Assembly: GCA_900539255.1 (NCBI GenBank) | Contig: UQBJ01000003.1 | Span: 22,058-86,057, forward strand | Length of the DNA stretch: 64,000 nucleotides | Source of the DNA: an uncultured Campylobacter sp. | GTDB taxonomy: Bacteria > Campylobacterota > Campylobacteria > Campylobacterales > Campylobacteraceae | Direction of reading: 5' to 3' | In this document: positions 36,860 through 39,109 of the stretch, one piece after another | Numbering within the stretch: position 1 is the stretch's first letter | How the letters are laid out: every line of letters starts with the position of its first letter | Translations under genes and position numbers: made by a program | The notes under the pieces: model-generated | Seen by the model: the letters and a program-made list of their open reading frames with translations, nothing else | Told to the model about the DNA's origin: nothing | Databases searched by the model: none

Positions 36860-39109
36860 TTATGGCTGTAAAACGCGGTAGTTAAGCTGCAAATTGTCAA
36901 GTTTTTGGTATTTTTGCAAGAATTCAGCCTTGTTTTTGGGGAGTTCAAAGGTTTCGTTTAATTGCGTTATAAAGCCATTTTTAAGCGTGTATTTGTAGCC
37001 AAATGCTGAATTTGCAGGGTAAATTCCACTCTCATCAAGCCAAAGCTCTGAATTTACCGCAAAATTATAACCTTTTAGCGCATTTTTATCAAAAAGGTTG
37101 CGCCCGCCAAGCGTGAGAAAATCATACTCGTTTAAACTCAGTGCGTAAAGGGTTGGAAAAATGTCCTTGTGAGAGCCTATTGTAGCAGGATTAAAGGCAA
37201 AGCCGTTTTTGTCAAAGTCCTTTGTGTAAGCACTTGGCACATACAAGTAAAACGGCACGGCGTGATTTAATGGCGTGTTTTCAAAGGCTATCAAATCTCT
37301 ATTTTTGTGGTCGCCGCTAGCAGCGATAATGGTAGAGTTTTTAAGCTCGCTGTGCTTAATAGAGCCGATAAATTCGCCAAAGGCATTGTTAGAATAAGCG
37401 AAAATTTCAGCACTTGCGCGAGTTTTTTGGGCATTGTTGTGCTTAAAAAAGTGCATTTTGTCCTTAAAGTCAAATTTTGGCGCGCTAAAATGCTCGGGCA
37501 AACTTGGGTAAGGCGGGTGATTTGAAGTCGTAAGAATAGCTATAAATGTGGGCTTTGTCGCCTTTTGCAGCAATTCAAAAGCGAATTTATAGGCAAATTC
37601 ATCAAGCACGCCGTAGATATTAGCGTTTTGCTTGCTTTGTGGATAGCGCGACATAAGGAAATTGCTATCATATACCGCATCAGCACCTAGCGTAGTAGCG
37701 TAATCGCCGAAATTTTGCCACGAGCGATTGCCAGAAGTAATGTAAATCACTTCATATCCAGCATTTTTATACACCGCAAAGGGCGTGAGTGCGAGCTTTT
37801 TGTCCTTTGCTAAACCAAGAGATATGTTAGCATTAGGGCTTAAAAAGAAAAGTGAGGCGAAACTGCCTGCTGTGCCGTTAGTTGATGATAAAAAATTCAT
37901 AAAAACAAAGTCATTTTGGGGTTTTGATGAGTTTTGCACCACTTTGCCCGCTTCAAAATGTGCCCGAAAGCCCATAAGCAAGTCAAAATTTAAGGCATTG
38001 TCAAGGGAAAGCATATTTGTGCCAAGACTTTCCATAAGCACGACAACGACATTTGGGCTTTTGCTTATACTTTTTTGGCTGTTGTGCTGAAATACAGGGA
38101 AAAGTTCGCTTTGTAAGGCTTCAAATTCATCTAAATTCACGGCTTGAAAGCTGTCTTGCTCTTTGTAATGGCTTAAAGCCCACGAAAAAGCGATGATAGG
38201 ATTTGTGCTGATATGGTTTATCAAGGCATTTGCGGCTATGTGATGCTCATCTTCACGCAAAGGAAAAGTGCCAACACTACCACGAATGCCTATAAAAACG
38301 AGCGCGATAAGGGTTAAATTCAGCACAAAGGACACCAAAGGGTCGAATTTTGTTTTAGCTTGATTTGCGCGTGGCTTGCTTGAATTTAGCTTAAATTGAG
38401 CGGAGTTTTTGCCCATAAAATGAGAATTTAAAATTCTCTTTGAAAGCTGCAAATAAAGCCACGCAAAGCAAGTGCTAGCTAGCAAGATGATTAAGACAGG
38501 GTAATCTTGCCACATTATCTTTAAGATAGCTGCGGTGTCATCGTCCTTTAAGCCAAAGATAAAAATGTCGATTTTGGTGTGATAAGTGCGAAAATAATAA
38601 AAATTCACAAAGGCACTTAAAGCAAAAACAAAGCTTGATAAAGTGGCGAAAAAGAGCGTGAATTTGTAGATAAATTTGTCAAATTTGAGACAAAAATTTA
38701 AGAAAAAATCATTTTTGCCTAAATTCTTTTTATCAAATGCCCCCCCCCCTGCCGTCATTTTGAGCCTTACCTTAAAAAGCATTTTGCTAAAAAGCGCAAG
38801 GTAGCCAAGCAGCATTATCAAGGCTATCACAACGCACACGGCGCGCATATCAAGGCGAAAGCCCATTATAAACATAGCCAAAAGCTCTTTTTTGAGCGGT
38901 GCAAACTCATCAAAATTTGTATAAGCGAGTAAAAATCGTTGCAAAAAATAACAAATTTCGCCCAAAAGTCCAAGCACCAAGCCTAAAACAATGAAATTTT
39001 TATAGCAGTGAAAATTTTCGCTCATTGAGCAAAAAGCAAGGCTTTGTCCAGCTGAATTCTCATCAAATTTTTTCGCCAAAATGAAACTCCGTTTTAAATT
39101 TAAAGCCAA
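36860..39109 (-). CDS. Sulfatase/LtaS-family integral membrane protein (phosphoglycerol/phosphoethanolamine-transferase-like), contains in-frame G10 tract
   Basis: 749 aa with N-terminal multi-TM segments and a C-terminal alkaline-phosphatase-superfamily domain (VVVVLMESLG...SNHPPY). The start may be an internal Met. Confidence 0.7.
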   Translation of the reverse strand: MALNLKRSFILAKKFDENSAGQSLAFCSMSENFHCYKNFIVLGLVLGLLGEICYFLQRFLLAYTNFDEFAPLKKELLAMFIMGFRLDMRAVCVVIALIMLLGYLALFSKMLFKVRLKMTAGGGAFDKKNLGKNDFFLNFCLKFDKFIYKFTLFFATLSSFVFALSAFVNFYYFRTYHTKIDIFIFGLKDDDTAAILKIMWQDYPVLIILLASTCFAWLYLQLSKRILNSHFMGKNSAQFKLNSSKPRANQAKTKFDPLVSFVLNLTLIALVFIGIRGSVGTFPLREDEHHIAANALINHISTNPIIAFSWALSHYKEQDSFQAVNLDEFEALQSELFPVFQHNSQKSISKSPNVVVVLMESLGTNMLSLDNALNFDLLMGFRAHFEAGKVVQNSSKPQNDFVFMNFLSSTNGTAGSFASLFFLSPNANISLGLAKDKKLALTPFAVYKNAGYEVIYITSGNRSWQNFGDYATTLGADAVYDSNFLMSRYPQSKQNANIYGVLDEFAYKFAFELLQKATKPTFIAILTTSNHPPYPSLPEHFSAPKFDFKDKMHFFKHNNAQKTRASAEIFAYSNNAFGEFIGSIKHSELKNSTIIAASGDHKNRDLIAFENTPLNHAVPFYLYVPSAYTKDFDKNGFAFNPATIGSHKDIFPTLYALSLNEYDFLTLGGRNLFDKNALKGYNFAVNSELWLDESGIYPANSAFGYKYTLKNGFITQLNETFELPKNKAEFLQKYQKLDNLQLNYRVLQP
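38740..38749 (-). repeat. Homopolymeric G10 tract within coding sequence (candidate phase-variation switch)
   Basis: The plus strand is C10. The minus strand reads ATG ACG GCA GGG GGG GGG GCA, encoding ..MTAGGGAFDKK... (residue ~120 of 749). It is in frame ON at length 10. Confidence 0.8.

Follow-up and report, generated by a model that had tools for sequence, protein, structure and literature searches.

Slipped-strand switching at poly-G/C tracts is an established mechanism of phase variation in Campylobacter (PMC6321876, PMC8355987). Phosphoglycerol transferase genes are among those concerned: in C. coli, PhasomeIt listed N149_0993, with a G(8-9) tract, in 90% of genomes and as part of the core phasome (PMC6321876), and in C. 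coli BfR-CA-9557 a phosphoglycerol transferase gene of 1969 nt has a C9 tract 256 nt from its start (PMC4687069). Here, we analysed a stretch of 64,000 nucleotides from an uncultured Campylobacter sp. (GenBank assembly GCA_900539255.1, contig UQBJ01000003.1, positions 22,058 to 86,057 of the forward strand), hereafter referred to as the window, which carries a run of ten G residues (G10) inside a minus-strand gene for a predicted LtaS-like integral membrane transferase of the Sulfatase/alkaline-phosphatase superfamily. We propose, with a probability of about 0.8, that this tract is a slipped-strand switch of the Campylobacter type, i.e., a phase-variable simple sequence repeat (SSR), situated in the loop between the second and third of five transmembrane (TM) helices of the enzyme.

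Related systems

The C. coli gene, of the N149_0993/Cj1055c type, resembles the window gene in that it encodes a Sulfatase-family, multi-TM transferase with an early poly-G tract. A locus from a genome labelled C. jejuni (L075) has an open reading frame (ORF) of 1968 nt with a G9 at codon 83, between TM2 and TM3, a geometry that matches the BfR-CA-9557 gene. However, the C. jejuni-group loci (L061, L070, L075 and L077) are 33–39% identical to the window protein and fall in a separate cluster, and the window protein is ~85 amino acids (aa) longer than that of the C. coli/C. jejuni group, with a longer N-terminus and longer loops. Judged through these four loci, the window gene is not an orthologue of the N149_0993/Cj1055c group; because of the level of identity and the separate clustering, it appears to belong to a paralogous subfamily that would work alike, rather than to be the same gene. 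The literature on Cj1055c yielded a single incidental mention and no functional data, and no biochemical work was found on LtaS-like enzymes of Campylobacter or Helicobacter; this enzyme family is not mentioned in the review PMC8355987, and neither a sulfatase nor a phosphoglycerol transferase is mentioned in the H. canadensis SSR paper. HP1417, considered as a possible phase-variable sulfatase-like gene of H. pylori, was dropped, as a literature search on it yielded unrelated papers only.

The best functional analogue is pptA of Neisseria, in which frameshifts in a poly-G tract encoding poly-Gly switch a surface phospho-form modification ON and OFF (PMC3656113). Both pptA and the window gene encode a membrane transferase of the alkaline-phosphatase superfamily with a coding poly-G for poly-Gly, whereas PptA, from another phylum, is an EptA-like phosphoethanolamine (pEtN)/phosphorylcholine (ChoP) transferase acting on pilin and the window enzyme is LtaS-like. 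LtaS/LtaP of Gram-positive bacteria and OpgB/MdoB of E. coli share with the latter five TMs, an extracytoplasmic Sulfatase fold and a Glu/Thr/Asp-His site, but they are 15–19% identical to it, and it scores far below the equivalog cut-offs. To our knowledge, Campylobacterota do not have lipoteichoic acid, therefore the acceptor must differ from that of LtaS; nor do we know of phase variation in LtaS or OpgB.

The type of switch is that of the poly-G contingency genes of C. jejuni (e.g., cj1295, the maf family, and the capsule and lipooligosaccharide (LOS) transferases), with G/C tracts of 8–13 in the ORF, most of which encode enzymes that modify the surface (PMC6321876, PMC8355987). ON/OFF switching by a ±1 slip is common to these genes and the window gene, whereas the protein family and the species differ. 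In H. bizzozeronii, genes for a 'membrane protein containing sulfatase domain' carry AG8/TC6 repeats and are putatively phase variable (PMC3234257); these are dinucleotide repeats, in contrast to the homopolymer of the window gene, and the likeness lies in the sulfatase domain. Neither the switch type nor its occurrence in this enzyme family is new (PMC6321876, PMC4687069).

The G10 tract and the consequences of slippage

The tract lies at 38740-38749, as C10 on the plus strand and thus G10 on the minus, coding strand. A sequence-only reading of this DNA had placed it in frame in a 749-aa gene, and the minus strand indeed reads ATG ACG GCA GGG GGG GGG GCA (M T A G G G A), so that, at length 10, the tract keeps the gene in frame (ON) and supplies the three Gly of ...KMTAGGGAFDK.... 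It occupies codons 121-124 of the 749-aa ORF, or codons 111-114 in 739-aa numbering.

The length of 749 aa holds for the maximal ORF (36860..39109, minus strand, from a TTG at 39109), but not for the probable product, which we take to be the 739-aa protein encoded by 36860..39079 from the TTG at 39079. This choice is favoured because a putative GGAG ribosome-binding site (39087..39090, minus strand) is found 7 nt upstream of the latter codon, because the TTG at 39109 overlaps a likely -10 box, and because gene callers let P0001, a homologue with 97% identity, begin at the corresponding codon (MAKKFDE...). The box, TGcTATACT (39111..39119, minus strand), is a candidate extended -10 element read by eye. 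A generic promoter/terminator scan of 36600-39400 did not exceed shuffled sequence in its counts and did not report TGcTATACT, so that the promoter is assigned from this by-eye element only.

Two G or C runs of at least 6 nt occur in the 64-kb window (42% G+C), at 4610-4619 and 38740-38749, each exactly 10 nt long, and there is none of 6–9 nt. No G10/C10 run appeared in any of 100 dinucleotide-preserving shuffles of the window (0/100, against 2 observed), and the expectation for a run of at least 10 under independent, identically distributed bases is 0.018 per window. Moreover, GGG accounts for 4 of the 37 Gly codons of the transferase gene, 3 of these 4 forming the tract; across 24 further large ORFs of the window, its share of Gly codons is 15%. 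Given the two runs of 10, the lack of runs of 6–9, the shuffles and the GGG codon bias, the tract is not a chance feature. As for the overall distribution of homopolymers, G/C run lengths in the window are bimodal, with intermediates missing and all present runs at 10; ~5–6 occurrences of GGGGGG per window are expected from shuffles, and A/T runs of 6–8 are abundant (241 in all).

The tract was replaced in silico with 7–13 G and the resulting reading frames were translated. The full protein results from lengths of 7, 10 and 13, which encode 2, 3 and 4 Gly, respectively. With G8 or G11, translation ends at a TGA 4 nt after the tract (38733..38735, minus strand; ...MTAGGG(G)I, then stop), and with G9 or G12 at a TAG 18 nt after it (38719..38721, minus strand; ...MTAGGG(G)HLIKRI, then stop). 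The OFF products, of 124/125 aa (G8/G11) and 129/130 aa (G9/G12) in the 749-aa numbering, contain TM1-2 only, the stop preceding TM3 and the catalytic domain. The earlier claim that any ±1 change from G10 truncates the protein upstream of its catalytic domain was thus borne out by the simulation, and the fragments are also found as called proteins. On the G11 contigs (L092-L094 and L096), 115-aa N-terminal fragments agree with the predicted TGA stop; on the G12 contigs, 120-aa fragments match the predicted TAG stop; and P0113, a 119-aa protein on 16 contigs that ends in ...MTAGGGHLIKRI, is exactly the predicted G9 product.

From the tract to the end of TM3 there is no in-frame ATG, GTG or TTG, so that the OFF state is most probably a true null. 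The first in-frame start past the tract, a GTG where TM3 ends, is the one from which gene callers obtain the 582-aa calls. Internal restart at this codon was considered and set aside, as the product would lack TM1-3 and not keep the topology, and is presumably non-functional.

Tract length varies within the species

A protein identical to that of the window is encoded on a 102-kb scaffold from a human gut metagenome (ENA ERZ28621735, SAMN03283291), and the GTDB species representative, which has a 97% copy (L001), is an uncultured Campylobacter metagenome-assembled genome (MAG) from Hadza stool. The organism is an uncultured human-gut Campylobacter species and not C. jejuni.

Within this species, tract lengths were read as the consensus of short-read metagenome assemblies. 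G9 is present in L081-L088 (the eight loci read of the 16 P0113-encoding contigs) and in L089; G10 in the window, L001, L090 and L091; G11 in L092, L093, L094 and L096; and G12 in L095 and L097. Neither G7 nor G13 turned up in the conspecific contigs examined. L089-L097 are collinear with the window (flgG2/flgG, transferase gene, rpoD) at 96.4–97.7% nt identity, and the three G9 loci with enough flank belong to a second genomic context. Tract length therefore differs, from G9 to G12, among close relatives (~97% identity) with the same flanks. Moreover, L095 (ERR10140808) and L096 (ERR10140777) differ over 4749 bp by a single 1-nt gap and by no mismatch; this gap falls in the tract, which is G12 and G11, respectively. 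L097 (ERR10140809) equals L095. This is a same-strain difference between sibling sequencing runs, confined to the tract. The phase-variable interpretation, against which an invariant tract length would have counted, is supported both by the four conspecific lengths and by this tract-only difference.

When the tract is reset to G10, every complete OFF locus yields an uninterrupted 739-aa ORF, so that the OFF alleles are otherwise intact, as for a switch rather than decay. The P0001 cluster at 90% protein identity has 569 members, and the 15 listed include 739/742-aa ON forms, C-terminal calls of 582 and 518 aa, and the 119-aa P0113. Some OFF-state calls are on contigs of up to 646 kb. By a rough count, in which 40 of the 569 members were read, OFF calls make up ~40% of contigs among the cluster members listed.

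The switched gene probably encodes an LtaS-like transferase

The Pfam Sulfatase domain (PF00884) matches aa 352-657 (E 3e-20; 73.1 bits against a cut-off of 25), which delimits an LtaS-like catalytic domain at 37139..38056 (minus strand) with E360 (MES), T413 (NGT) and D600-H601 (SGDH). For the membrane domain (38285..39007, minus strand), hydropathy and AlphaFold2 (AF2) predict five TM helices, with the tract in the TM2-TM3 loop. The hydropathy segments (aa 38-56, 90-108, 150-168, 205-223 and 257-275 in 749-aa numbering) are matched by long helices at 36-65, 73-120, 135-175, 205-227 and 255-275 in the AF2 model, which was built from a 26-sequence alignment and has a mean predicted local distance difference test (pLDDT) score of 77, the C-terminal domain being well predicted. 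The tract-encoded stretch, residues 121-132, has a pLDDT below 50. Given five TMs and an extracytoplasmic catalytic domain, as in LtaS, topology parity would place the tract-bearing loop in the cytoplasm.

In the 26-sequence alignment, Thr413 is invariant, and E360 and D600-H601 are at least 90% conserved, if not invariant. A phmmer alignment to B. subtilis LtaS (2w8d) pairs Thr413 with the Thr of GKTS, presumably the catalytic nucleophile of LtaS, and GDH with YGDH; the codon of Thr413, the nucleophile predicted by this alignment, is at 37871..37873 (minus strand). Searched against the PDB with Foldseek, the model first matches VP1736, an uncharacterised Vibrio protein (3lxq, E 3e-16), followed by LtaS/LtaP of Listeria, Staphylococcus and Bacillus (4uor, 4uop, 2w5r and 2w8d; E 6e-15 to 2e-13, target TM-score 0.64-0.72). 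PbgA/YejM, EptA, MCR-1 and true sulfatases rank lower.

A Sulfatase match above the gathering score, five N-terminal TMs, the catalytic residues and an LtaS-type fold thus place the protein among the LtaS-like/COG1368 enzymes. It is not an orthologue of LtaS or OpgB: NCBIfam returned two matches only, both weak, namely lipoteichoic acid synthase (LtaS equivalog NF053595, 30.5 bits against a cut-off of 970) and phosphoglycerol transferase I (OpgB/MdoB, PRK12363, 19.7 bits against 572). The product is probably an active, membrane-anchored, LtaS-like phospho-headgroup transferase that is not an orthologue of LtaS, OpgB or EptA/EptC. The part of the sequence-only reading that described a multi-TM enzyme of this superfamily therefore stands, with the refinement that the catalytic domain is nearer to the LtaS/OpgB (phosphoglycerol) branch than to the EptA/EptC branch; a polymyxin or lipid A phenotype is accordingly not the first expectation. 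By analogy with the LtaS-like fold, transfer of glycerol phosphate from phosphatidylglycerol would be the leading guess.

Genomic contexts and a possible phosphoethanolamine transferase

In the window, two flagellar rod genes (FlgG2/FlgG-like, 271 and 263 aa; 39235-40852, plus strand) are divergent from the transferase gene. In a second context (L001, L081-L083), a ~97% identical gene is located between an outer membrane protein (OMP) gene and an ammonium transporter gene, and in a third (L099) the order is flgG, transferase gene, 4HBT thioesterase gene. Window positions 36845-39113 and close relatives share a coding sequence (CDS) that is 96–97% identical in at least three genomic contexts, and homology to the copies in other contexts ends within ~35 nt of the start codon, with 39113 as its limit, and 4-15 nt past the stop. 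Cassette-like relocation, gene conversion between copies or local rearrangement could account for these contexts.

These observations bear on an explanation that accepts the switch and takes the enzyme to be an EptC/EptA-type pEtN transferase, which would modify lipid A, the LOS core or FlgG and thereby control motility and resistance to polymyxin and other cationic antimicrobial peptides (CAMPs). The superfamily and the 5-TM architecture are the same, EptA (5fgn, E 1e-10), MCR-1 and E. coli EptC are also matched by Foldseek, and the phase-variable pptA of Neisseria is EptA-like. C. jejuni EptC, a sulfatase-family enzyme, modifies FlgG as well as lipid A, and flgG2 and flgG are immediately upstream here, on the opposite strand. 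However, the LtaS-type structures are the better matches (E 1e-16 to 1e-13), full-length EptA and MCR-1 reaching a target TM-score of 0.41-0.44 against the 0.64-0.72 given above, and NCBIfam points only to LtaS and phosphoglycerol transferase I. Pfam reports no EptA-type N-terminal domain, Sulfatase being the sole match at E 0.01 or better. Since adjacency to flgG2/flgG is not conserved in the other contexts, a functional link to these genes is doubtful, and we rejected such coupling as a conserved feature. Overall, a pEtN transferase seems improbable to us, although it fares better than the explanations discussed below.

We therefore retain a switched, LtaS-like transferase, for which the following mechanism is proposed. 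At G10 (and also at G7 or G13), the full 739-aa enzyme would be made. Gain or loss of one G during replication would shift the frame into a stop 4 or 18 nt on, and the slipped alleles would yield a fragment of ~115-120 aa with two TM helices and no enzyme. In ON cells, Thr413 and a metal site (Glu360, Asp600 and His601) most probably serve the periplasmic domain in moving a phospho-alcohol headgroup from a membrane phospholipid to a periplasmic or surface glycoconjugate; from homology, phosphatidylglycerol would be the likeliest donor and glycerol phosphate the likeliest headgroup. Decorated and undecorated cells would then coexist in the population.

Poly-G and poly-C tracts across the family

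Homologues were sought in one genome per GTDB species, which gave 80 loci. In 27 of the 46 Campylobacter/Helicobacteraceae loci tabulated, the 5' part of the gene contains a G or C run of at least 8 nt; this holds for none of the 5 gammaproteobacterial loci tabulated (including Legionella). The tract-bearing homologues span at least 9 sequence clusters or lineages of Campylobacter and Helicobacter, and in all ON homologues examined (13/13) the tract falls between predicted TM2 and TM3, with either poly-G (Gly) or poly-C (Pro) on the coding strand. Apart from GGG, the loop around the tract is unconserved in the protein alignment.

Differences in tract length and state are also seen outside the window species. 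In Helicobacter bilis, two isolates with identical flanks carry G13 (L017, 4139-4151; ON) and G12 (L019, 4139-4150; OFF, the genome of ATCC 51630), which is isolate-level evidence for phase variability of the homologues in enterohepatic Helicobacter. C. aviculae has a G10 (ON) and C. estrildidarum a G9 (OFF); G9 is ON in the C. jejuni-labelled W1 and OFF in C. jejuni 414. Several database proteins have the tract as their start (MGGGGF..., MGGGDY...), an artefact of gene calling on OFF alleles. In three uncultured Helicobacteraceae MAGs, there are three LtaS-like paralogues per genome (L004/L006/L049, L005/L010/L058 and L009/L016/L069), one with poly-G and two with poly-C, in mixed ON and OFF states. 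One Helicobacter MAG contig begins with 74 consecutive C (L036, 1-74) that abut the homologous gene, almost certainly an assembly artefact seeded at the homopolymer tract of that gene.

Taken together, these data tentatively suggest a family-wide design in Campylobacterota, which we put forward as a conjecture: a hypermutable G/C tract at a fixed TM2-TM3 site might have been acquired repeatedly, genomes with three paralogues might reach eight phasotypes, the outcome might be combinatorial phospho-headgroup decorations of LOS, glycans or flagella, and the gene might move or be converted as a cassette.

Switch, decay or sequencing error

Several points weigh against the proposed switch. The conspecific lengths all come from assembled short-read consensus, in which homopolymers of 10–12 are error-prone, and reversible switching within a clone is presumed from consensus assemblies, as is its rate. 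The closest named relative, C. troglodytis, has only a G7, probably too short for frequent switching, and relatives that are 62–67% identical (L002 and L003) have no tract. As to the chemistry, scores of 30.5 against 970 (LtaS) and 19.7 against 572 (OpgB) make glycerol-phosphate transfer just the nearest analogy.

The OFF alleles could be pseudogenes, i.e., the result of irreversible frameshift loss at a mutational hot spot. This would fit the ~40% share of OFF among the listed conspecific calls, the extra disruptions downstream of the tract in two homologues (L021 and L022), and the absence or relocation of the gene in close relatives. Nevertheless, each complete conspecific OFF allele is otherwise intact over its 739 codons, ON and OFF alleles are interleaved among near-identical haplotypes, and deep lineages keep the tracts, intact ORFs and conserved catalytic residues, which indicates purifying selection on both the enzyme and the repeat. 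We therefore regard decay as a quite unlikely account of the OFF alleles.

It has also to be asked whether the in-frame lengths G7, G10 and G13, with 2, 3 and 4 Gly, tune activity as a multi-level rheostat beyond ON and OFF. In Neisseria pptA, an in-frame 11G allele, with one extra Gly, is inactive, unlike 8G (PMC3656113), and in-frame homologues of the window gene carry 2–4 Gly (G7 in C. troglodytis, G13 in H. bilis). Against this, the loop is unconserved in length and sequence and predicted to be disordered, so that one Gly more or less is unlikely to matter, and the conspecific contigs examined include neither G7 nor G13. Such tuning thus appears very unlikely.

Least credible of all is that the tract just encodes a Gly3 linker and its length differences are sequencing or assembly errors with no switching. 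Illumina reads and assemblers are known to err at G10-12, all the conspecific lengths are from short-read assemblies and the sole same-strain difference is a single 1-nt gap. However, the OFF lengths recur in samples and with assemblers that are independent of each other: 16 contigs have G9, G11 is found in L092 and L093, which stem from different projects, and G12 in both L095 and L097. A row of three GGG codons is unusual when only 15% of Gly codons are GGG, and the window has two runs of 10 yet none of 6-9. In at least 9 lineages the tract occupies the same topological position, whether as poly-G or as poly-C, which encode different amino acids, and isolate genomes (H. bilis) are also found both ON and OFF.

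Other repeats and flanking features

The second G10 of the window (4610-4619, minus strand) is upstream of the ORF 4094..4552 (minus strand). It is immediately 5' of CATTATAAT, a -10-like box, and ~60 nt upstream of a gene whose start, MLKSVLSVAAFCGLSLLFMAC, corresponds to a lipoprotein signal peptide. Its appearance is that of a phase-variation tract in a promoter spacer.

In the second genomic context of the transferase gene, the intergenic region between the OMP gene and the transferase gene contains a poly-C of 13–17, the length of which differs between contigs (L001 3765-3778; L081 2743-2757; L082 97-109; L084, L085 and L087 at contig ends). On the strand of the HP_OMP-family gene this tract is poly-G and directly upstream of TAAAAT. 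It is a probable second, promoter-located phase-variable locus.

Downstream of the transferase gene, the generic scan mentioned above found no terminator before rpoD within 36600-39400. Polarity of the OFF state on rpoD was considered and judged unlikely, as the 148-nt gap before rpoD holds a promoter-like site (TTGCAA-18-TAAAAT, 36806-36777) and in the other contexts the downstream gene is another than rpoD. A short element of ~75–130 nt is shared, at 78–84% identity, between the paralogue locus L003 (8966-9090) and the window (22233-22356, 31143-31215 and 57607-57693); it may correspond to tRNA genes or a dispersed repeat.

Significance

The current understanding of phase variation is unchanged by this finding. 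It adds a contingency locus, well supported because natural ON and OFF alleles exist at four tract lengths, to an uncultured human-gut Campylobacter seen in the Hadza and other non-industrial cohorts. Moreover, it shows that repeat-mediated switching recurrently affects LtaS-like transferases, in Campylobacter as well as in Helicobacter. The naturally occurring ON/OFF pairs could serve in a genetic search for a new surface or periplasmic modification, which may affect interactions with phage, immune factors or antimicrobial peptides.

If the tentative family-wide design is true, gut epsilonproteobacteria would carry chemically undescribed phospho-headgroup decorations, e.g., of glycerol phosphate, and the near-identical CDS in three contexts would point to a gene that relocates, or undergoes conversion, as a cassette. 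The wider pattern, with one topological site, repeated gain of poly-G or poly-C and several switching paralogues per genome, could merit a focused comparative and biochemical study.

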